The position numbers and the translations under genes were made by a program. The notes below the pieces were generated by a model. The model was not told where the DNA came from. It saw only the letters and a list, made by a program, of their open reading frames with translations, and searched no databases. Of a stretch of 64,000 nucleotides of DNA, positions 318-56,600 are shown piece after piece; within the stretch, counting starts at the first letter, position 1, and the number at the start of each line of letters is the position of its first letter. Source of the DNA: Alphaproteobacteria bacterium (GTDB lineage Bacteria > Pseudomonadota > Alphaproteobacteria > RF32 > CAG-239); assembly GCA_017626035.1 (NCBI GenBank), contig JAGAJR010000018.1, forward strand, positions 36,329-100,328, written 5' to 3'.

Positions 318-2507
318 CTAAAGGATATTCAGCAGCATATCCAGCATTTCTTTGTTAGCGGTAAATGTTTGGGCACAAGCCGCATAGCTTTGCTGAAAGA
401 TAATAAGTTGAGCCAGTTCCTCATCCATATCAACCCCGCTGAGCTTAGCCTCTTTCAGGGAAATGGAATTGGTAAGCTCTGACTGGTAGTTGAAAGAAGA
501 TTCTGTTTCGTTGCATTGAGAAGCCAGATTGCCGACAAAAGTAGACGCATAGTTAGATAAGGTCGTCTGGGTTGAAGACAGCGTTCCGGCCTGAGAAAAA
601 GCTTGGGATGTCGCAAACGCTTCGGCCAAATCGTTGGCAATGTTGTTTGCGGCAGGGTTAAGCTGATATTCTCCGGAATTAGGGTTAAATTCAGGGGAAC
701 CGGCAGAAATCAGGCTTGGCGAAGTCAATAAATCATCCCGAACGCGAATAGAACCGGCGGTATCTGCATTAGACGGGTGCATACCGATTCTTTCCAAAAA
801 TCCGGTAGTTTGCGTCGCTCCGGCATTAAGAGCTTCGTTGATTTCCAATTGTTCTCCGGAAGTGTTGTTGATTTGTAAAACATAACCGCTGCCGTTAGGA
901 ACCAGAGAAGCTTTCAACTGCCCGTTAAGGTCATTGTTATTGTTGATTTTGTTGACAATGTCCTGAAGGCTGTCATTCGGATAGACGTTAATGGAACCCA
1001 AATTCGGATTATTGGCCGTTCCGAATTCCAGAGTAATTCTTTCCCGAACGCCGAGGTTAGCGTTTTTACTCAAAACTTTTGAATCATAAACGGCTTCGTT
1101 GGCGGTAGAGATAAAGAAATCGTTTAATCCGAAGAAATTTGAAAAACCTTCCATTGTTCGGTCAAAAGCACCGTCTCCGTTGACGTCAAAACGGACGGTA
1201 ACGTCTTTTTGTTCGCTTCCCGGAGTAGAATAAGCTTCATCCATAACCGAGAAGGAATAATTGCTGTCTCCGGTTTCAATAACCAGATTGCCGTCAGCGT
1301 TGATTTGGGCGTATGCTTGCGGCAGATTGGCCCCGTCAGGAGATTGCAGCCAGTCGTTAATTCTGGAGATGGTGTCGGTAACGCTTTCGCCCTCGGCAGG
1401 CATTCCCAAATTGCCGAGCAGGGTCGTTGTCGCAACCTGTTTTCCGTCAGCATCAAAGATTGTAAAACGGACATCACCGCCTTCAATTTGAATCTTTTGA
1501 ACATCCGGATTAATAAAGTCGCGGGTTCCGGTCAGAGATGACGGTGCGTTCGGATAAGAAGTTCCGCGGTTGTGAACTTGGTTTATTGAGTCTTTCAATA
1601 CCGAGGCTAATTCGTTTAACTGAGATTGCAAAGCAGTCAGGGAAGTGTCGCGGACTTCGATTAATCCTTTGATTTCACCGTTTTTAATGCGGTTGGTTAT
1701 ATCTTCTCCGTCCACATAAATTCCCCCGATTCCGCCGCCGGCATAAGATGTTGTCGGGCTGGCCTGAGCCACGGCACTGTGGGAAAGATAGTGCGGATAA
1801 CGGTCAAGAAGAGTAACGCCGTTGGTTGTTTGGATAACGATTTCTCCGTTTTCTCTGGTAAAATAAGAAAGGTCAATCAATCCGCTCAGGTTTCTTAAGG
1901 CCTCATCTCTCTGGTCTTCCAAATCGGCAACGCCTTCGTAGTTAAGAACCTTATATTTTACGATTTGATCGTTCAGTCTTTGAATGTCATCAAGATAGCC
2001 GTTGACTTGCTCGCAGGCTTCCGAAATATTTAAATCGGCATCGCCGCGGAGTTTTTGAATTTCCTGCGTCAGGGAGTTTAATCTGGAGGCAACGGTGTTA
2101 GCGTTGTTCAGCAAAGAATATCTGGCAGCAGAAGAGGTAACGTCGGAAGCAAACGTTTCAAAAGCAGACTGTAAGTCGGCAACATTGGCAGAAAGAGAAT
2201 TATTTCCCTGCGGTGTTCCGAGCAGAATTTCCGCTTTGCCCAAATATTGGCTTTGAGCGTTCAGGCTGCCTGTGGTGCAGTTGGAAGCCAGAAAGCTTTT
2301 AAGCAGGCCTTCGTTGACGTTGCGGGTAATGTCGCCGAGGGTAACGCCGGCATTTTGTCCGGCCAGAACGACGTTTTTCTGTTGTGCGACTTTACGGGTA
2401 TAACCGACGGTGTCCACATTGGCGATATTGCGTCCCACAATATCCATCTGAGACTGCGAAACTTTCATTCCCGTAAGGGCTGTTTGAATACCTGATAACA
2501 TTGCCAT
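318..2507 (-). CDS. flgK: Flagellar hook-associated protein 1 (FlgK)
   Basis: A 729-aa protein. The N-terminus MAMLSGIQTALTGMKVSQSQMDIVGRNIANVDTVGYTRK is the flagellar hook-filament junction signature. The C-terminal helical region ends LSGVDMDEELAQLIIFQQSYAACAQ. Confidence 0.85.
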   Translation of the reverse strand: MAMLSGIQTALTGMKVSQSQMDIVGRNIANVDTVGYTRKVAQQKNVVLAGQNAGVTLGDITRNVNEGLLKSFLASNCTTGSLNAQSQYLGKAEILLGTPQGNNSLSANVADLQSAFETFASDVTSSAARYSLLNNANTVASRLNSLTQEIQKLRGDADLNISEACEQVNGYLDDIQRLNDQIVKYKVLNYEGVADLEDQRDEALRNLSGLIDLSYFTRENGEIVIQTTNGVTLLDRYPHYLSHSAVAQASPTTSYAGGGIGGIYVDGEDITNRIKNGEIKGLIEVRDTSLTALQSQLNELASVLKDSINQVHNRGTSYPNAPSSLTGTRDFINPDVQKIQIEGGDVRFTIFDADGKQVATTTLLGNLGMPAEGESVTDTISRINDWLQSPDGANLPQAYAQINADGNLVIETGDSNYSFSVMDEAYSTPGSEQKDVTVRFDVNGDGAFDRTMEGFSNFFGLNDFFISTANEAVYDSKVLSKNANLGVRERITLEFGTANNPNLGSINVYPNDSLQDIVNKINNNNDLNGQLKASLVPNGSGYVLQINNTSGEQLEINEALNAGATQTTGFLERIGMHPSNADTAGSIRVRDDLLTSPSLISAGSPEFNPNSGEYQLNPAANNIANDLAEAFATSQAFSQAGTLSSTQTTLSNYASTFVGNLASQCNETESSFNYQSELTNSISLKEAKLSGVDMDEELAQLIIFQQSYAACAQTFTANKEMLDMLLNIL

Positions 2508-2518
2508 TGTAAAAACTC

Positions 2519-2980
2519 CTATAAAGTTCTGTTTATTGCGATTGCGTTTTTACTGTTATCCAAAGGTGAATACTTACCTTGGGAGCCATAAGATGTCGAA
2601 TTGGCATTATTGGTAATTTTGGCAATTCGGACAATTGAATCCATGACGGATTTGCTGGTTTCCATTCGGGTTTTCAGCAAAGTGTCATTTTCCTTGAGCA
2701 GGGTGTCAAGCTTGAGAGAAAGCTCTTTGACGTTATTTCTTTCCGTCTCTTCCAGAGCTTTCAGAACCTCCTGGTTCTTAATAAAATAAGCGACCAGATT
2801 GCGATATGCCGTAACGATTTTTGTTTTTTGTTCGTAAAGAGCGGTAACGGCATCCGTATCATAATTTCTGAGAGCTTCGTTTTCGATACTCAGAAGGTCG
2901 GAAAAACTGTTGATTATTTCTTTATAATCGGCAATTTTTCTGTTGAAATCTTCATTTTGAATTTGAGCTGTATTTTCCAT
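2519..2980 (-). CDS. FlgN-like flagellar export chaperone (tentative)
   Basis: A 153-aa helical protein lying between the rod-binding gene and flgK, the usual flgN position. The C-terminal ..YGSQGKYS.. resembles the FlgN tail. Confidence 0.4.
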   Translation of the reverse strand: MENTAQIQNEDFNRKIADYKEIINSFSDLLSIENEALRNYDTDAVTALYEQKTKIVTAYRNLVAYFIKNQEVLKALEETERNNVKELSLKLDTLLKENDTLLKTRMETSKSVMDSIVRIAKITNNANSTSYGSQGKYSPLDNSKNAIAINRTL

Positions 2981-32941: not shown

Positions 32942-34601
32942 TTTTGATAGAAGCGGAATATATTTTCTGCCTTTGGGCGGGGCTGACGAAATCGGAATGA
33001 ACCTTTATGTTTATGCCGTAGACGGGAAATTAATCGTCGTTGACGCCGGATACGGTTTTTTGAATGATGATTATCCGGGAATGGATTTGGGTTTTGCCGA
33101 TGTGTCGTTTTTAAAGAATTATACGGATGATATTGAGGCTTTGTTTATAACCCATGCCCATGAGGATCATTTCGGAGCCATAGCCCAGATATGGCCGGAA
33201 TTGAAATGTCCGGTCTATGCGACGGATTTTACCAAAGGCCTGATAGAGGAACGCCTGAAGGAATACCATCTGGACGGAGAAGTCCCCGTGCATTCGGTCA
33301 GCGGAAACAAAATTATCCGCCTGCAGAATTTTGAGGTGGAATATGTTTCAATTGTCCACTCTGTTCCGGAAACAAGTGCCCTGATTATCCGTACCCGTTT
33401 CGGCAATGTGGTGCATGCGACGGATTGGCGGTTTGACGACAGCCAACTGCCGTTGATACAAACGGATTATCAGGCATTGGAAAAAGCAGCCAAAGACGGT
33501 GTGGAAATGTTTGTCTGCGATTCAACAAATGTCTTGGTTGATGAAAAACTTCCGAGCGAAAATGATGTTCGCCAAAGCCTGATAAAATTGATTCCGACTT
33601 TTGAAAACGGGTTGATTACCACTTGTTTTGCCTCCAATTTGATGCGGCTGGAGAGTCTGATATTGGCGGCTGTCGAAGCTCAGCGAACACCGGTTTTGGT
33701 AGGGCGGACTTTGCTCCAGAATATGCGGATTGCCAAAGAGTGCGGCTATTTTAAAAATTTGCCGAATGTTCTGGATATTCAGGAGGCCAAGGAAATACCG
33801 TCGGACAAGGTGCTGTATATTTGTACCGGTTCGCAGGGAAATTACCGCAGTGCCCTGACTAATATTGTTAATGGCGAAAACAAAGATATTAAATTGGGCA
33901 AAGGCGATGCCATCATCTTTTCTTCCAAGATTATTCCCGGAAATGAAGATAAAATCGAGCGAATGCAGGAAAAATTGATTGCTCAGGGTGTTGAGGTAAT
34001 TACGGAGGAAGATTATCTGGTGCATACGTCAGGCCACGCCACCAAAGAGGAATTGAAGCGGATGTATGATCTGCTTAAACCGAAAGTCGTCTTGCCGGTG
34101 CACGGAGATAAAAAGTTCATCAGAGAACATCAACGCTTTGCTCAAGCGTGCGGCATTCAACAAGTGGCAACGGCCAAAAACGGCGATGTTATGCTGTTGG
34201 AAAACGGACATATCAGTTGTTTGGAAGAAGTGCCGACGGATATTCTCGGCGTTGACCGCAAACAGATTACTTCGCTTAATTCGCAGCTGGTGAAAAACCG
34301 CCGCCGCTTGATGTATAATTGCAGCCTGTTTATCAGCACGGTATTTGATGAAAATTGGAACTTGGAAGATTTGCAGATTTCGTCAATAGATATTTTGGAA
34401 GAACCGGCATTTTTGGAACTTGCGGAGGAAATCAAAGCCGACGTGATAAAAGATATTCGGGAACACGTGGAAAAATTGAATTATAAAGTTCCGGCAATTA
34501 CAGACTATATTCGCGGTAAAATCAGAAAGCGTATTTACAATGAAACGGGAATAAAACCGGTGGTGTTTATGCACTTTTTCAAACGCCCGAAACCGGAATA
34601 A
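32934..34601 (+). CDS. rnj: Ribonuclease J (metallo-beta-lactamase / beta-CASP)
   Basis: A 555-aa protein. It has the MBL motif ITHAHEDHFGA and beta-CASP blocks. It sits in the nuoN-birA-rnj synteny typical of alphaproteobacteria. Confidence 0.85.
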   Translation: MSDFDRSGIYFLPLGGADEIGMNLYVYAVDGKLIVVDAGYGFLNDDYPGMDLGFADVSFLKNYTDDIEALFITHAHEDHFGAIAQIWPELKCPVYATDFTKGLIEERLKEYHLDGEVPVHSVSGNKIIRLQNFEVEYVSIVHSVPETSALIIRTRFGNVVHATDWRFDDSQLPLIQTDYQALEKAAKDGVEMFVCDSTNVLVDEKLPSENDVRQSLIKLIPTFENGLITTCFASNLMRLESLILAAVEAQRTPVLVGRTLLQNMRIAKECGYFKNLPNVLDIQEAKEIPSDKVLYICTGSQGNYRSALTNIVNGENKDIKLGKGDAIIFSSKIIPGNEDKIERMQEKLIAQGVEVITEEDYLVHTSGHATKEELKRMYDLLKPKVVLPVHGDKKFIREHQRFAQACGIQQVATAKNGDVMLLENGHISCLEEVPTDILGVDRKQITSLNSQLVKNRRRLMYNCSLFISTVFDENWNLEDLQISSIDILEEPAFLELAEEIKADVIKDIREHVEKLNYKVPAITDYIRGKIRKRIYNETGIKPVVFMHFFKRPKPE

Positions 34602-34636
34602 TTTAAGACAAAGCCCCTTTTTGAGGGGCTTAAACT

Positions 34637-34915
34637 TTATTCTTTAGGCTTAGAAAGAAATCCCGCGTAAACACGAAGTTGATAATAATTCGCCAGTTTT
34701 TGAATAAGTTTCCAGTTGACGGCTTCCCGCCCGATTTCCACATTGTCCAACTCTCTCTGCTTAATATGTAAATCCATACAGACAACGGAAGAGTTTATTT
34801 TCCGTTTTTGACGGATACGAAATAAGTGCATCCCTAAAGACCGTTGAATGGCTTTACGGATAGATTTGTTTTCCGATTGGTAAAAGAAATTGTTTTTAAT
34901 TTTATGTTCAGTCAT
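34637..34915 (-). CDS. XRE-family helix-turn-helix protein (copy 1, 92 aa)
   Basis: HTH_3-like region IRKAIQRSLGMHLFRIRQKRKINSSVVCMDLHIKQRELDNVEIGRE. An AAGGAG RBS lies 9 nt upstream. The protein is about 90 percent identical to the copy at 53682-53963. Confidence 0.55.
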   Translation of the reverse strand: MTEHKIKNNFFYQSENKSIRKAIQRSLGMHLFRIRQKRKINSSVVCMDLHIKQRELDNVEIGREAVNWKLIQKLANYYQLRVYAGFLSKPKE

Positions 34916-34940
34916 CTTTTCAAACTCCTTATTTTGTTTA

Positions 34941-35136
34941 ACTTAAACAAAACCCTGCCTTGTGAAGGCAGGGGGAGTTCAGAACTGTAGTAGAACAGTC
35001 TGGGTTATTCGAGCATAGCCTTATGTCCCCAGCTCCCCGTAAAGGAGTTGTTCTTTTTTCTACTAGGAGCTCTGACACTCCGCAGTCCACCTCTGAACTG
35101 CAAAAAAGATGATAAAGCAAATAGATTAATTTGCAA
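34941..35136 (-). promoter_or_regulatory. Conserved promoter + ~160-nt leader RNA ending in an intrinsic terminator (attenuator) immediately upstream of the XRE gene, copy 1
   Basis: Minus-strand promoter elements are TTGCAA (35131-35136) and TATCAT (35109-35114). The terminator hairpin CCCTGCCTTCACAAGGCAGGG (34953-34973) is followed by UUUUGUUUAAGUU. No separate promoter lies between the terminator and the RBS. Confidence 0.4.
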
Positions 35137-35319
35137 TTAAAATTCTAAGCCACAATCTTATAAGCGGCACATAGATACTAACAGGATGTCAAGGTGCTCA
35201 CTCTCCACAGCTAACTTTCGCCCGTGGTCGCCGACCACCCAACGGGGAGTTAAAGCACATACTCAACACCGCCAACTAATGCCCGTGCCGGCTCGGCACC
35301 GCCGACCACCCGCCGGCAC

Positions 35320-35754
35320 CTAGACGAACTCGTCAACTTCTTCAATGATTTCGTTTTTCTCGTAAAAATGCTTAAGATAAGAGTGCCCGGTGCGGTCGTC
35401 ATCATCTTCTTTGATGATGGATTGATTATTGCCGTAAACGTCAACCTGGCTAGGGGTGCGGCGTTTTTCGGGAGCGGCCGGAGTTTCATATACGCCGCTG
35501 GCCGTCAGGGCTTCAATGGCACTGGGAATATAGGTTGCTCCCGACAGAAGTTTGCCTTCATCGGGTTTATCCCGTTTGTCAAAGGCTTGCGGGTTATTTT
35601 CATTGCTGCCGCGATTCTCATCACGGACAAAAACATTGTTTGTGGTGTCAATATTTTCAACAAAAGGGTGCTCTTCCACCCCGGCAACATAACGTTCGGA
35701 TCTCTTTGCCGGAGCTGAAGTATTTGATACTTTTCTGGTAGCTGAAATACTCAT
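35320..35754 (-). CDS. Hypothetical protein (144 aa), acidic C-terminus
   Basis: An ORF abutting the right end of repeat copy 1. No recognisable domain. Confidence 0.35.
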   Translation of the reverse strand: MSISATRKVSNTSAPAKRSERYVAGVEEHPFVENIDTTNNVFVRDENRGSNENNPQAFDKRDKPDEGKLLSGATYIPSAIEALTASGVYETPAAPEKRRTPSQVDVYGNNQSIIKEDDDDRTGHSYLKHFYEKNEIIEEVDEFV

Positions 35755-51601: not shown

Positions 51602-53248
<1,647 letters not shown>

Positions 53249-53272: not shown

Positions 53273-53650
53273 ATGGAAAGAGGCATCATATTCAGAATAT
53301 CCCGTCCGTATAAAATCTATCGGACAATGCTGGCCCAAAAGATTGTTGTCCCGGGCGTTAACGGCGATTTGACCGTTTTACGCGACCGGGCACCAACCCT
53401 GATTTTGCTCCGTAACGGCATACTTCAGGTTTTGGATGCCGCCAATAATCCGATAGAACGTTATTATGTTAAAGGCGGAATAGCGGATATTGCCAGAAAC
53501 CGTTGTGCCGTCTCCACGGAAAAAGTTGTTGCCTGTGAAAATATGACATTGGAAAAGGCAACGGAAAAACGGGATGCCGCCATTCATCAGGAAGATAAAG
53601 ATTTCTACCAGATGATTATTAATGACATTACCGTTTTCGGGAATAAATAA
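53273..53650 (+). CDS. atpC: ATP synthase F1 epsilon subunit
   Basis: A 125-aa protein. IVVPGVNGDLTVLRDRAPTL aligns to the epsilon core (..VTGSEGELGIYPGHAPLL..). It is the last gene of the atp operon. Confidence 0.7.
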   Translation: MERGIIFRISRPYKIYRTMLAQKIVVPGVNGDLTVLRDRAPTLILLRNGILQVLDAANNPIERYYVKGGIADIARNRCAVSTEKVVACENMTLEKATEKRDAAIHQEDKDFYQMIINDITVFGNK

Positions 53651-53681
53651 AGTAAAGCCCCTCAGTTGAGGGGCTTAAATT

Positions 53682-53963
53682 TTACTTTTTAGGCTTAGAA
53701 AGAAATCCCGCGTAAACATGGAGTTGATAATAATTGGCCAGCTTTTGTATAAGTTTCCAGTTGACGGCTTCCCGTCCGATTTCCACATTGTCTAAATCTC
53801 TCTGCTTAATATGCAAATCCATACAAACAATGGAAGAGTTGATTTTCCGCTTTTGGCGGATACGAAATAAGTGCATACCCAAAGAACGTTGAATGGCTTT
53901 ACGGATAGATTTGTTTTCCGATTGATAGAAAAAATTAGTTTTAATTTTATGTTCAGTCATCAT
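53682..53963 (-). CDS. XRE-family helix-turn-helix protein (copy 2, 93 aa)
   Basis: It is about 90 percent identical to copy 1 and has the same AAGGAG RBS. One extra Met codon is present at the start. Confidence 0.55.
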   Translation of the reverse strand: MMTEHKIKTNFFYQSENKSIRKAIQRSLGMHLFRIRQKRKINSSIVCMDLHIKQRDLDNVEIGREAVNWKLIQKLANYYQLHVYAGFLSKPKK

Positions 53964-53986
53964 CTTTTCAAACTCCTTATTTGTTT

Positions 53987-54193
53987 TAGTTAAACAAAAC
54001 TCACCTTATTGAAAAATAAGGTGAGGGAGTTCGAAACTGCTTACGACAGTCTGCATTCTTCGACATATAAATATGCTTATACCTGCAGCTCCCCCATAAA
54101 GAGGAGTTGATATTCGTAAGAGGAGTTTCGACGCTCCGCAGTCCACCTCTGAACTGCAAGAAGGATGATAAAGCAAATAGATTAATTATTCAA
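53987..54193 (-). promoter_or_regulatory. Conserved promoter + leader RNA with covarying terminator hairpin, copy 2
   Basis: Minus-strand elements are TTGAAT (54188-54193), a 17-nt spacer and TATCAT (54165-54170). The terminator CTCACCTTAT-loop-ATAAGGTGAG (53999-54025) is followed by UUUUGUUUAACU. Confidence 0.4.
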
Positions 54194-54332
54194 GCCACAA
54201 ACTTTCGGTCTGCACATAGATACTAACAGGGAGTTAAGGCACTTACTCAACACCGACAACCGAGGCGATCAAACTGGCTCAGTTTGGCCCGTGGTCGCCG
54301 ACCACAAAGCCCCTCAATTGAGGGGCTTTTAA

Positions 54333-56600
54333 TTAAGCACAGTTTTTAGTTTTTTCCGGCATAAGTTCTTCCAGAACCTGTTTTTTCAGAGTTACGTTAT
54401 CGGCTTTACCGGTTGCAAAAACCGGAAGCTGGTCTTTATAGAGGATAACTCTTGGCAGATAGAGTTCGGACATTCCGTTGTTTTTGATGTAATTGTGCAA
54501 AACATCCTGTTCAACCTGACGATTATTGGTAACTAAAACAATCTGTTCGCCTTTACTTTCATGCGGAATGGCAACCACGCCATACTGGAATTCGGCTCCC
54601 ATCCATTCATAGGCATTGCAGACCATTTCCTGAACAGCGTTAAGAGATACCATTTCCCCGCCGATTTTAGCAAAACGTTTAATCCGGTCTTTAATGTAAA
54701 CAAATCCGATTTCATCAATTTCCACAACGTCTCCGGTATGATACCAACCGTCTTCCAGCGGGACTAAAACTCCCGGGTTGTCAGGCAGAATATATCCCAG
54801 CATAATGTTTGGCCCTTTAATGACGAGTTCGCCGCCTTTTTCAATACCGTCAACCGGTTCAATCCTATATTTAATGGCCGGCATCAGTTTTCCGATAGAG
54901 CCGAAACGGTTGAAAATACGATTGTTAGCGGTAATCACCGGAGAACATTCTGTTGATCCGTAACCTTCCATAACGCGGATACCTAAGCGTTCCATCCACA
55001 TATTGCGGGTGTCGGGTTTAACGGCCTCGGCACCGCCGAACATAAAGCGGACATTGTGGAAGTCAAACGGATGGGCAATTTTGGCATAACCGCGGAAGAA
55101 CGTGTCTGTTCCAAACATAATGGTTGCCCCGATTTCATACACAATCTCAGCCACAACACGATAATGGAGCGGAGAAGGGTAGAGGAAGAGTTTGGCTCCT
55201 TCCAACAGCGGAAACAGCGTTCCTGCGGTCAGCCCGAAACTATGGAACATCGGCAGGGCATTAAACAGCGTGTCTGTAATATTGATGGTTTCAATAGCTG
55301 AAATCTGCTTAATGTTGGAAATAATGTTGGCATGGCTGAGAACCACGGCTTTCGGAGCTCCTTCCGAACCGGAAGTAAACAGGATGACGGCTTTTTTGTT
55401 GCCGCCGTCTTTGTGCGGAACCCGTTTGATTTTATAACGCAGGAAAGCGTTGATTTTATCCCATAAGCCGATTTCTTTGCGGAGAGATTCCAAAAAGACG
55501 ATTTCCACGCCGTTGGCTTTAAGAACATCCACCACTTGTTCCATTTTGGCATTCTTGATAAAGGCCAGAGAAGTAATGACTTTCTTTACTTCGGCGGTGC
55601 GACACATGGAAGCCATGTTTTTTGCTCCGACGGAGAAGTTGAGCATAACCGGAACGCGTTCATAAGCCGATAACCCGAAGAAAGTGCAGACGGCGGCAAT
55701 TGTGTTCGGCAATAAAATGGCAACATGCTCTCCCGGCAGGGTTTTTCTCTTGAAATATTTTCCGAGAACAAAAGACTTAATGATAATGTCTTTGTAAGAA
55801 TTCGGCTGCCGCTGAATATCTTCCACAAAATGCGGGCGTTTCAACAATCCTTTTTTGGAATGAACTTTGGCTGTTTTCATTAATTGGGCAAACAGGGAGA
55901 TGTTCGGATTGTAATTAACTTCAAAACACATCTCGCGGAGAATTTGATAAACTTCGTTGCTGATGTGGTCTCTCTGGCGGCGGAGTTCGTCTTTTAATTT
56001 GAAAGCACGAGGTTTTCCGACGGTAATTTTTACCTTTGGCAGCGGACGGTGCGGAAGTTTTCCCTTGGTTTTGGAAAAATAACCGTATTGAGGGCCGTTA
56101 ATCCAAACCGGAATAAGCGGAGCATGGGATTTATCGGCCAACAAGCCCGGGGCTTCGTAAATTTTCATCAGGCCACCGTTTTCGGTCATGCGTCCTTCGG
56201 CAAAAATAACGCACAAACGTCCTTCTGAAACTTTGGAAATAAGGCTTTTCAAATCCCCCGGTTCAATCGGGTTAAACAGGATGACATCCGCAGTTTTCAT
56301 CAAAACGCGTATCCATCTCTTGCGATAAAGATGCCCGTTTAAGGCAAAAATCGGATTTCCGGGAAGAAAAGCAAACAATAAAACAGGGTCAAGATACGAA
56401 ACGTGGTTGGATACATAAACCCCTTTTTTGGGAAGATTTTTATCTTTAAATTCAATAGAACATCTTACTTTAAATAATCTGAAAATCAACCTCAAACAAA
56501 ATCGGACGAAGTCTCTCAAAATTAGTCTCCGGTAGTTACAAAATATAGGAAATTCTAAACAAATTATTAATATTTTGTAAAGAAATAAAATCCCGGGCAT
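54333..56600 (-). CDS. Bifunctional acyltransferase / acyl-ACP (acyl-CoA) synthetase, Aas-like
   Basis: A 755-aa protein. It has an N-terminal PlsC-type HX4D motif (VSNHVSYLD) followed by an AMP-binding domain (ILFTSGSEGAPKAV ... GWYHTGD). The start is uncertain. Confidence 0.75.
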   Translation of the reverse strand: MPGILFLYKILIICLEFPIFCNYRRLILRDFVRFCLRLIFRLFKVRCSIEFKDKNLPKKGVYVSNHVSYLDPVLLFAFLPGNPIFALNGHLYRKRWIRVLMKTADVILFNPIEPGDLKSLISKVSEGRLCVIFAEGRMTENGGLMKIYEAPGLLADKSHAPLIPVWINGPQYGYFSKTKGKLPHRPLPKVKITVGKPRAFKLKDELRRQRDHISNEVYQILREMCFEVNYNPNISLFAQLMKTAKVHSKKGLLKRPHFVEDIQRQPNSYKDIIIKSFVLGKYFKRKTLPGEHVAILLPNTIAAVCTFFGLSAYERVPVMLNFSVGAKNMASMCRTAEVKKVITSLAFIKNAKMEQVVDVLKANGVEIVFLESLRKEIGLWDKINAFLRYKIKRVPHKDGGNKKAVILFTSGSEGAPKAVVLSHANIISNIKQISAIETINITDTLFNALPMFHSFGLTAGTLFPLLEGAKLFLYPSPLHYRVVAEIVYEIGATIMFGTDTFFRGYAKIAHPFDFHNVRFMFGGAEAVKPDTRNMWMERLGIRVMEGYGSTECSPVITANNRIFNRFGSIGKLMPAIKYRIEPVDGIEKGGELVIKGPNIMLGYILPDNPGVLVPLEDGWYHTGDVVEIDEIGFVYIKDRIKRFAKIGGEMVSLNAVQEMVCNAYEWMGAEFQYGVVAIPHESKGEQIVLVTNNRQVEQDVLHNYIKNNGMSELYLPRVILYKDQLPVFATGKADNVTLKKQVLEELMPEKTKNCA

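Follow-up and report, generated by a model that had tools for sequence, protein, structure and literature searches.

How is a small regulatory gene expressed that starts a few nucleotides behind a transcription terminator and has no space for a promoter of its own, and why does this arrangement stand twice in unrelated surroundings? The question is raised by a stretch of 64,000 nucleotides (nt) from an uncultured alphaproteobacterium (lineage CAG-239; contig JAGAJR010000018.1, positions 36,329 to 100,328), the whole of which is called the window below. In it, two copies of a module, or cassette, each combine a promoter, a leader RNA, an intrinsic terminator and a gene for a small helix-turn-helix (HTH) protein. 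Using comparative analysis we find that the leader is a genuine structured RNA, that it recurs in multiple copies in the genomes of related gut Alphaproteobacteria, and that it is followed almost always by a small gene whose products form one divergent XRE-HTH superfamily. We put at roughly 0.7 the probability that each module is an autonomous unit in which the leader serves as a transcription attenuator gating the XRE regulator, and possibly also as a stable small RNA.

Two collinear modules in the window

A search of the window for repeats recovered direct repeats at an offset of 19,045-19,056 nt, pairing 34595-34894 with 53640-53939 (300 nt, 88%), 35015-35131 with 54071-54187 (79%) and 35136-35215 with 54181-54260 (71%). 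The two modules are collinear, lie on the minus strand, measure ~700 bp and are both extended upstream by GC-rich palindromes (copy A 34611-35136; copy B 53655-54193). Pairwise alignment of their minus strands over ~700 nt gave a mean column identity of 84%, with long identical blocks alternating with short, wholly different ones and ~16% of the positions differing. The flanks of both copies are unique, the convergent neighbors being the genes for RNase J (rnj) beside copy A and for the ATP synthase epsilon subunit (atpC) beside copy B. The original prediction, made from the letters of the sequence, had described two such collinear segments about 19 kb apart after rnj and atpC, each with a minus-strand open reading frame (ORF) of 92 or 93 amino acids (aa), and both claims were borne out. 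The parts of the two copies are as follows, all on the minus strand unless stated otherwise.

Copy A, 35140..35319: GC-rich palindrome array upstream of the promoter (GTGCCGAGCCGGCAC, GTGGTCGGCGACCAC and a 36-nt unit present twice; repeat families D4/D5)
Copy A, 35109..35136: promoter from a consensus scan, with -35 TTGCAA (35136-35131), a 16-nt spacer and -10 TATCAT (35114-35109)
Copy A, 34944..35102: leader RNA of ~159 nt (covariance model (CM) R1, 155.2 bits, E 3e-41)
Copy A, leader, 5' part: hairpin P1 (35101-35082); helix P2, with GGAG (35081-35078) pairing with AACUCC (34979-34974); helix P3
Copy A, leader, 3' part: A-rich linker; P4; P5 with an AUAAG/CGAAUAA internal loop; GACUG (35000-34996); terminator
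Copy A, 34943..34973: intrinsic terminator from a terminator scan, 9-bp stem CCCUGCCUU/AAGGCAGGG (34973-34953), then UUUUGUUUAA
Copy A, 34925..34930: Shine-Dalgarno (SD) sequence AAGGAG, then UU; 12 nt past the U-tract and 9 nt ahead of the ATG
Copy A, 34637..34915: gene for a 92-aa XRE-superfamily HTH protein, from the ORF list
Copy A, 34611..34631, no strand assigned: 3' hairpin AAGCCCCUUUUUGAGGGGCUU, common to the convergent rnj; 3' limit of the duplicated unit
Copy B, 54195..54329: upstream region with the terminator hairpin of an acyltransferase gene (54306-54329) and the palindromes GTGGTCGGCGACCAC (54291-54305) and CAAACTGAGCCAGTTTG (54270-54286); repeat family D3
Copy B, 54165..54193: promoter from a consensus scan, -35 TTGAAT, 17-nt spacer, -10 TATCAT
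Copy B, 53991..54158: leader RNA of ~168 nt with the architecture of copy A (CM R1, 141.7 bits)
Copy B, 53990..54025: intrinsic terminator, 11-bp stem CUCACCUUAUU/AAUAAGGUGAG (hairpin 54025..54000), then UUUUGUUUAA
Copy B, 53973..53978: SD sequence AAGGAG, 12 nt past the U-tract and 9 nt ahead of the ATG
Copy B, 53682..53963: gene for a 93-aa paralog with 95% aa identity to the copy A protein; a second in-frame ATG lies at 53960
Copy B, 53655..53676, no strand assigned: 3' hairpin, common to the convergent atpC and near-identical to the acyltransferase terminator hairpin (54306-54329) on the other side of the copy

In the terminator scan both hairpins (34973..34953 and 54025..54000) are followed by UUUUGUUU. 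The claim of a ~160-nt leader ending in an intrinsic terminator close before AAGGAG held for both copies, and the 12 nt between U-tract and SD are too few to accommodate a further promoter, as had also been proposed. Nor is anything else in the window repeated in this manner, since the leader CM recovers the two leaders (155.2 and 141.7 bits) and nothing else above 14.7 bits. The U-tract UUUUGUUU is also able to pair with a conserved A-rich tract, AAACAAAA, just downstream of it (34935-34952 and 53982-53999, minus strand); this would form a small AU hairpin immediately ahead of the SD, and distant copies retain this pairing in shifted registers.

A structured leader RNA linked to small HTH genes

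The leaders have predicted minimum free energies (MFE) of -71.5 kcal/mol in copy A (z = -5.35 against shuffles) and -70.5 kcal/mol in copy B (z = -7.07). The blocks in which the two copies differ are complementary pairs: P2 contains UCAGAGC...GUUCUGA in copy A and UCGAAAC...GUUUCGA in copy B, and P3 reads UAGUAGAA...UUCUACUA in the former as against CUUACGA...UCGUAAG in the latter. Copy B accordingly has another P2 box (CGA as against CAG) and also differs in P5 type and in a wholly different terminator stem. Further copies were collected by scanning species-representative genomes with the invariant 5' hairpin and metagenomes with an independent core pattern. The metagenome scan yielded at least 120 stretches, mostly from human gut, and the total of distinct full-length copies among the matches listed was 82.

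The consensus derived from these copies begins with the P1 hairpin, followed by P2 (GGAG, a 2-nt bulge and 8 bp), a C-rich internal loop and a highly variable P3 of 7-10 bp. The core comprises the A-rich linker AGAAAAAGAAC, P4 (ACUCCUU/GGGGAG) and P5 with its AUAAG/CGAAUAA internal loop and variable tip. On the 3' side GACUG, P3', CAGUU, P2' and AACUCC succeed one another, with the terminator directly after them. In a MAFFT alignment of the 82 copies 98.7% of the cells pair, as against 84.0% in shuffled alignments (0 of 500 as high) and 36-61% with slid partners. Double-sided changes are seen in 16 of the 32 pairs, and in 35 of 47 once P1 and P3 are included in a model-based alignment. The 38 distinct P3 arms form a mean of 7.5 contiguous pairs with their own partners and 2.6 with the partners from other copies. 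The terminator stem has changed on both sides at 8 of its 9 pairs while 97.8% of its cells pair, and every full copy ends in a GC-rich hairpin and a U-tract. Helices of all sizes covary, including hairpins of 4-6 bp and the terminator, while the nucleotides of the junction are conserved. Moreover, G-U pairs are frequent and one-sided (40 G-U and 41 A-U at one P2 pair; 75 U-G in P4). As these would be C-A mismatches on the opposite strand, the constraint acts on the RNA in the sense of the ORF and not on the DNA. The leader is thus a genuine structured RNA.

Two ORFs of 60 and 56 aa that overlap the leader were considered as coding sequences and rejected: they start upstream of the -10 box and lose their frame through 1- and 5-nt indels between copies A and B, so the leader is non-coding. 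A comparison with Rfam, proposed along with the original prediction, matched no family: among the 4227 families of Rfam 15 none matched the leader, the sole gathering-level match in the window being a tRNA-Lys. A permissive scan of 34560-35340 returned nothing above 24 bits against a threshold of 90, all matches being chance-like.

The promoter is conserved along with the RNA. The predicted sigma-70-like elements TTGCAA/TTGAAT-16/17-TATCAT were found in both window copies, and 74 of the 79 distinct upstream regions have TTGCNN-17-TAnnnT at a constant distance from P1, with TAnnnT 7-9 nt ahead of the first base of P1 and a spacer sequence that varies between clades. This fixed distance predicts P1 as the 5' end of the transcript; in copy A the predicted start falls ~7 nt past the -10 box, at the foot of P1. 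Many copies have the promoter directly adjoining the terminator hairpin of the gene before it, which would insulate the unit.

Behind the RNA an SD and a small ORF (59-162 aa, mostly 73-116) follow in 107 of the 110 copies with enough downstream sequence. The start codon usually lies 20-31 nt past the U-tract, or 66-71 nt in one subfamily with an extra hairpin. This linkage supports the earlier suggestion of a paralogous family of riboregulated regulators. Of 71 copies that extend far enough downstream, 69 have GGAGUU as SD, and this has counterparts within the leader: all 82 copies have GGAG/CUCC as the outer pairs of P2, although the pairs beside them vary freely, the 5' strand of P2 (GGAGU) resembles the SD, and both the 3' strand of P2 (AACUCC) and the 5' strand of P4 (AACUCCUU) are perfect anti-SD sequences. 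For the read-through RNA of copy B the MFE fold has 11 bp between the 3' strand of P2 and the SD region, whereas that of copy A leaves the SD unpaired.

The XRE-type HTH assignment of the original prediction did not stand for the window proteins taken alone, which match Pfam HTH_31 with E 0.029 (15.1 bits, below the curated cutoff of 27), find no match in NCBIfam and have homologs in only 7 clusters, all of at least 85% identity, among 5.8 billion sequences. It did stand at the level of the family. Paralogs behind the same RNA pass the Pfam cutoffs (HTH_31 32.8 > 27, HTH_3 27.3 > 23, HTH_26 23.2 > 22), and 19 of 27 family representatives match HTH_31 at E <= 0.01. The ORFs vary widely, some having no more than 11-27% identity to the window protein, yet align as one family with the pattern ...LG..L...R...//...(I/L)E.G...//...L..(F/Y)Y.K.IKIEL. 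A profile of this family with the window protein as its first row matches DdrOC, C.BclI, ClgR, SinR and the 434 repressor (E 1e-10 to 1e-4) over positions ~16-88. On these sequence relationships the ORFs behind the leader belong to one divergent XRE-HTH superfamily. An AlphaFold2 model of the window protein built from 9 close homologs had a pLDDT (predicted local distance difference test) of 45.8 and was too poor to use.

Several variants of the module were encountered among the loci examined (numbered with the prefix L). A "long variant" of the leader carries ~180 nt of unrelated sequence after P4 in place of most of P5, with terminator and HTH gene as usual (L001:2637-3000, L005:1-312, L008:1-337, L014:2664-3030, L028:377-640). 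Two AT-rich hairpin/T-tract elements lie in its insert, as perhaps does a short antisense ORF, and a comparison of its core with Rfam gave no meaningful match. Two leaders stand in tandem, 88 nt apart, before one HTH gene at L062:2163-2331 and 2420-2588 (minus strand). A second hairpin or terminator-like element occupies the 66-71-nt spacer between terminator and SD downstream of position 5911 in L150 and in the L050/L011 subfamily. Finally, the family CM recovers two divergent RNAs with 32-34 bits (L045:970-1158, plus strand; L123:159-353, minus strand), in which promoter, P1, GGAG-type closing helix, variable P3 and terminator are alike and the core is different. The former precedes a 618-aa kinase-like ORF and the latter a coiled-coil-like ORF cut by the end of the contig.

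Distribution and mosaic evolution of the modules

In the species-representative genomes the genuine matches to the 18-base P1 pattern all come from metagenome-assembled genomes (MAGs) of gut Alphaproteobacteria, the remaining matches lying in unrelated phyla without the rest of the motif. At least 9 copies with the exact P1 pattern are present in 'Alphaproteobacteria bacterium MAG7984' and at least 7 in 'uncultured Azospirillum sp.' CAZFRT01. The motif is also carried by Candidatus Scatocola faecipullorum, filed by NCBI under Rhodospirillales, and by several other MAGs. The copy number in related genomes, whose determination had been proposed earlier, is thus at least 7-9, and the copies stand in unrelated core-genome contexts, beside flagellar/chemotaxis genes, pgm/ftsH, atpC and rnj. 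An origin from phages or plasmids was considered and rejected, as the core pattern found no match in IMG/VR and blastn none in PLSDB. Some copies occur on very short contigs in assemblies of more than 1 million contigs (L003, L004, L104 and L106; records WFLX01... and VIDP01...), which suggests that these large assemblies are host-associated or metagenome-like and include the bacterium as a passenger; L106 contains the 3' half of the RNA alone, directly after the end of a gene.

The locus between atpC and the gene for an acyl-ACP/phospholipid acyltransferase is informative for how the modules evolve. In the window (53650-54335) and in MAG7984 (L025:2324-2913) the flanking proteins are 98% identical. 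The window cassette, with a type-1 HTH gene, points toward atpC, whereas MAG7984 has a different 73-aa paralog and leader in the opposite orientation. Comparison of the sequences thus indicates that the cassette was replaced or inverted here between near-identical genomes. In other strains (L006:404-560 and L007:413-571, compared with 53991-54158 of the window) the DNA of the ORF is 96-98% identical while the leader differs in blocks, namely P2 box, P3, P5 type and terminator, with L006 and L007 having the P5 and terminator of copy A. The copies of a given genome all combine P2 box and P3 arm differently; 12 types of the former and 38 of the latter were seen. In about 15 of 81 parsed copies, mostly on short-read metagenome contigs, the P2 or P3 halves are mismatched and each half matches halves found elsewhere (among them L063, L066, L075, L078, L079, L082, L094, L099, L130 and L147). 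Assembly may have joined different copies across the ~70-nt core, which is identical among them, or natural recombination may have broken the helices. Judged from these sequences, cassettes appear to be exchanged between strains, and the leaders evolve as mosaics, much faster than the DNA around them, for which neutral gene conversion and selected diversification are both possible.

The GC-rich palindromes upstream of the modules form arrays, that of copy A with a G+C content of 56% as against 42% for the window, and are found in the window only upstream of both modules (35140-35319 and 54195-54305). Across all loci examined, L002, L006, L009, L019, L028, L041 and L046 among them, each of the 24 occurrences has a module within 450 nt, and about half of the copies in related MAGs are without them. 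Examples are GTGCCG-AGC-CGGCAC, GTGGTCG-G-CGACCAC, CAAACTG-AGC-CAGTTTG and CACCCG-G-CGGGTG. A nearby 36-nt unit (GTTRGC..GTTGAGTA.GTGC.TTAACTCCC.GTT) resembles a decayed P2 region. Like the short, GC-rich, imperfect palindromes known as repetitive extragenic palindromes (REP) and their mosaic arrays (BIME, bacterial interspersed mosaic elements), they stand in mosaic intergenic arrays near gene ends. They differ from these in being adjacent to modules rather than dispersed, and in that each is a perfect palindrome of 13-17 bp of the type bound by dimeric HTH proteins. Generic dispersed REP elements were therefore rejected, as the palindromes stand only beside modules. From their sequence they look like an optional accessory of the module, either candidate operators for dimeric HTH proteins or REP-like hairpins.

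Elsewhere in the window, the ATP synthase beta subunit (51620-53248, plus strand) has an N-terminal extension of ~70 residues rich in Lys and Ala, which is unusual for AtpD.

Attenuation, its alternatives and a comparison with Bartonella

The comparison of sequences establishes the parts of the module, the fold of the RNA and its strand, the presence of multiple copies and the linkage to XRE genes. We infer that transcription would start from a strong sigma-70-type promoter at the foot of P1. The next ~140 nt fold into the long bipartite closing helix P2 + P3 around a three-way junction of A-rich linker, P4 and P5. Most transcripts would end by default at the terminator, giving a stable RNA of ~160 nt. 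As the XRE gene starts 21 nt further on and lacks a promoter of its own, it would be made only from read-through transcripts. The leader would then set the amount of regulator, and a signal, such as a metabolite or factor binding the conserved junction, would shift the balance. As a further hypothesis, the same fold might set the accessibility of the SD in the read-through mRNA by means of the SD look-alike and anti-SD strands of P2. The terminated RNA may in addition act in trans, its ARN-rich linker and U-tail being suited to binding Hfq. Dependence on read-through, with attenuation or a leader that is itself a small RNA, had been suggested at the outset; the comparative data support this, with the regulation of read-through itself a matter of prediction.

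The nearest described design is that of Bartonella henselae. There nine Brt RNAs of 194-203 nt are highly expressed and have structures predicted to be stable, and behind each of them, after 10-18 nt, comes a small XRE gene that is poorly transcribed; other Bartonella species have up to 34 copies, and the family, defined by BLAST similarity of >=74-79% among copies, was called 'unique to the genus Bartonella' (PMC5387305). Deletion of the 3' stem-loop of Brt1 raises trp1 transcription, for which it was termed a 'transcriptional attenuator', a reporter responds to heme concentration, and Trp1 binds the badA promoter (review PMC8070961). Like Brt1-9/Trp1-9, the window family comprises multiple copies per genome with a small promoterless XRE gene few nt downstream. 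In both, a structured RNA of ~160-200 nt (here ~160-170 nt) lies immediately ahead of the gene. The consensus fold of Brt follows the same plan. It opens with a 5' hairpin; then a helix GGGA...UCCC with covarying pairs closes the structure around a C-rich internal loop, a variable and highly covarying second helix and a junction of several helices, and the 3' hairpin and the SD come last. Both families have an SD to which the 3' strand of this closing helix is complementary. The variable second helix is flanked by CUGA and CAGU in Brt and by GACUG and CAGU in the window family. The promoters are also alike, both being of the form TTGCNA-17-TATNAN, with TTATTGCCAA-N17-TATGA in Brt and TTAATTGCAAA-N17-TATCA in the window family.

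The two families nonetheless differ in several respects. The junction core has two inner hairpins with AUAAG/CGAAUAA loops here and three hairpins in Brt. Here a canonical terminator with U-tract forms the 3' hairpin and the SD is separate from it, while no U-tract follows the 3' hairpin of Brt. The proteins (59-162 aa, mostly 73-116, as against 108-152 aa in Trp) have in common a generic HTH only (hhalign probability 84.6%, 15% identity). The hosts are uncultured gut Alphaproteobacteria filed under Rhodospirillales here and Bartonella (Hyphomicrobiales) there, and the copies are scattered in core-genome contexts here but clustered in a plastic region in Bartonella. One Brt/trp pair from plasmid pBGR3 and seven obtained via Trp homologs gave the consensus fold and a CM of 8 Brt copies (R3). 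On Brt loci the window-family models R1 and R2 did not rise above noise, with 5.7-7.5 bits on the strand of the Brt RNA. R3 scored 5.5-12.5 bits (E 0.02-3) on window-family RNAs, with 12 of the 21 best matches in 84 kb lying on the RNA in the right strand and register (model positions 32-171, corresponding to P2..P2'). A wrong-strand match at L037 scores like the right-strand one, and a generic long-helix architecture may explain this enrichment. Brt is absent from Rfam, so Rfam cannot decide how the leader relates to it. We therefore regard the leader as an RNA family in its own right, similar to Brt in its workings and perhaps distantly related to it.

A number of points weigh against attenuation as proposed here. 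A scan of all column pairs for compensated pairing found no covarying antiterminator; only the consensus helices stand out, and G/U-rich columns and the relatedness of the copies account for the noise that remains. P2 lies beside the terminator and does not exclude it, an arrangement that suggests no obvious switching mechanism. Among 49 MFE folds of the full leader only 25 pair the SD, which keeps the anti-SD idea from being decisive. The two non-HTH genes described above stand behind divergent RNAs built on the same scaffold, which is hence not XRE-specific. Homology to Brt, judged by the covariance models, is not established. Lastly, transcript start, 3' end and the ratio of terminated to read-through RNA are predictions from the sequence.

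The alternative that fares best, though we regard it as unlikely, is that the RNA is mainly a free-standing, trans-acting small RNA, possibly Hfq-binding, behind which a leaky terminator allows constitutive low expression of the XRE gene with no regulated switching. It would account for the unit's own promoter, 5' hairpin, strong terminator with U-tail, and conserved, ARN-rich, single-stranded linker (AGAAAAAGAAC), for three CUCC (anti-SD-like) motifs in the RNA, and for the failure to detect an antiterminator; in Bartonella, moreover, Brt1 has been proposed to act in trans on badA (PMC5387305). What argues for a role in cis is the small HTH gene immediately downstream in 107 of 110 copies, at a fixed short spacing and with no promoter between, together with the de-repression of trp1 upon removal of the 3' stem-loop in Bartonella (PMC8070961). 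The two roles are, however, not mutually exclusive.

A more elaborate version of the gated regulator, which we consider unlikely, holds that the three-way junction gates a set of paralogous XRE proteins, either as the aptamer of a riboswitch class not yet described or through a dedicated factor that binds there. In it, P2 and P3 would be copy-specific 'barcodes' for cross-talk in trans, terminated RNAs invading matching nascent leaders or CUCC motifs masking GGAGUU sites. Were the barcodes real, the family would be a combinatorial RNA-based regulatory network. With riboswitches and attenuating leaders in general the RNA has in common a conserved structured 5' leader, conserved junction nucleotides beside covarying helices, an intrinsic terminator just upstream of an ORF and, as in some c-di-GMP riboswitches, many copies per genome. 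It departs from riboswitches in that no mutually exclusive antiterminator and no Rfam match were found and in that transcription factors are unusual targets for them.

The original prediction had also considered a small mobile or addiction-type element, which may be cast as a type III toxin-antitoxin-like pair of RNA and protein. In ToxIN the order is promoter, RNA, terminator, protein, with the protein made by read-through after the abundant RNA, and the order of parts in the module resembles this. The copies, at least 7-9 per genome, stand in unrelated contexts, contigs often break at the module, and copy B lies between two near-identical palindromic hairpins. Leader blocks vary among strains at one locus, and at the atpC-acyltransferase locus a near-identical genome has a different paralog in opposite orientation. 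All the same, the proposal found no support and is very improbable: the module has no transposase, integrase, terminal inverted repeat or target-site duplication, no match among viral contigs and plasmids, and no toxin partner or partner ORF, and several strains have retained the atpC-linked copy at one site. The RNA of ToxIN consists of tandem short repeats and its protein is an endoribonuclease. Within the leader, a single complex fold, no tandem repeats were found, and its protein is an XRE DNA-binding domain rather than a nuclease or other toxin type, so that the module does not qualify as a type III toxin-antitoxin system.

It is hardly credible that the complementary segments act as DNA, whether as inverted repeats for a recombinase or an invertible promoter or as operators for the HTH protein. 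The arms of P2 and P3 are indeed long inverted repeats ~75 bp apart beside the gene of a DNA-binding protein, and cassette orientation differs between strains. This reading is contradicted by the abundant one-sided G-U pairs and by covariation in helices of every size, down to the 4-6-bp hairpins and the terminator, and the same protein type occurs with many P2/P3 sequences, so the arms are not protein-specific operators. An assembly duplication of one locus, also considered in the original prediction and suggested by nothing beyond the repeat itself, can be dismissed, given ~16% divergence with indels, different helices and different terminators, unique flanks, and an atpC-linked arrangement seen independently in other assemblies.

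Literature searches for a prior description of the leader family gave only the Bartonella work. According to Fremin & Bhatt 2021, HTH-XRE genes are among the commonest neighbors of their 3161 unnamed candidate RNAs (PMC8040213); the motif could be among these, and six diagnostic strings were absent from the first 200 of the 408 supplementary files. Systems of this kind are known; new are the structured-RNA family and its breadth, the SD-mimic helix that never varies and the exchange of blocks between copies.

The Brt/Trp design, described as specific to Bartonella, is thus found in another, uncultured alphaproteobacterial lineage common in human gut metagenomes, which suggests that 'leader RNA + XRE' cassettes serve as regulatory devices more generally in Alphaproteobacteria. 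The family adds a well-supported candidate, with dozens of natural variants, to the orphan structured RNAs without an Rfam family. The exchange of helix blocks between its copies is a natural experiment on the evolution of structured RNA, and comparing the two families in the SD-mimic/anti-SD helix and the conserved junction may help to work out the mechanism and the ligand.

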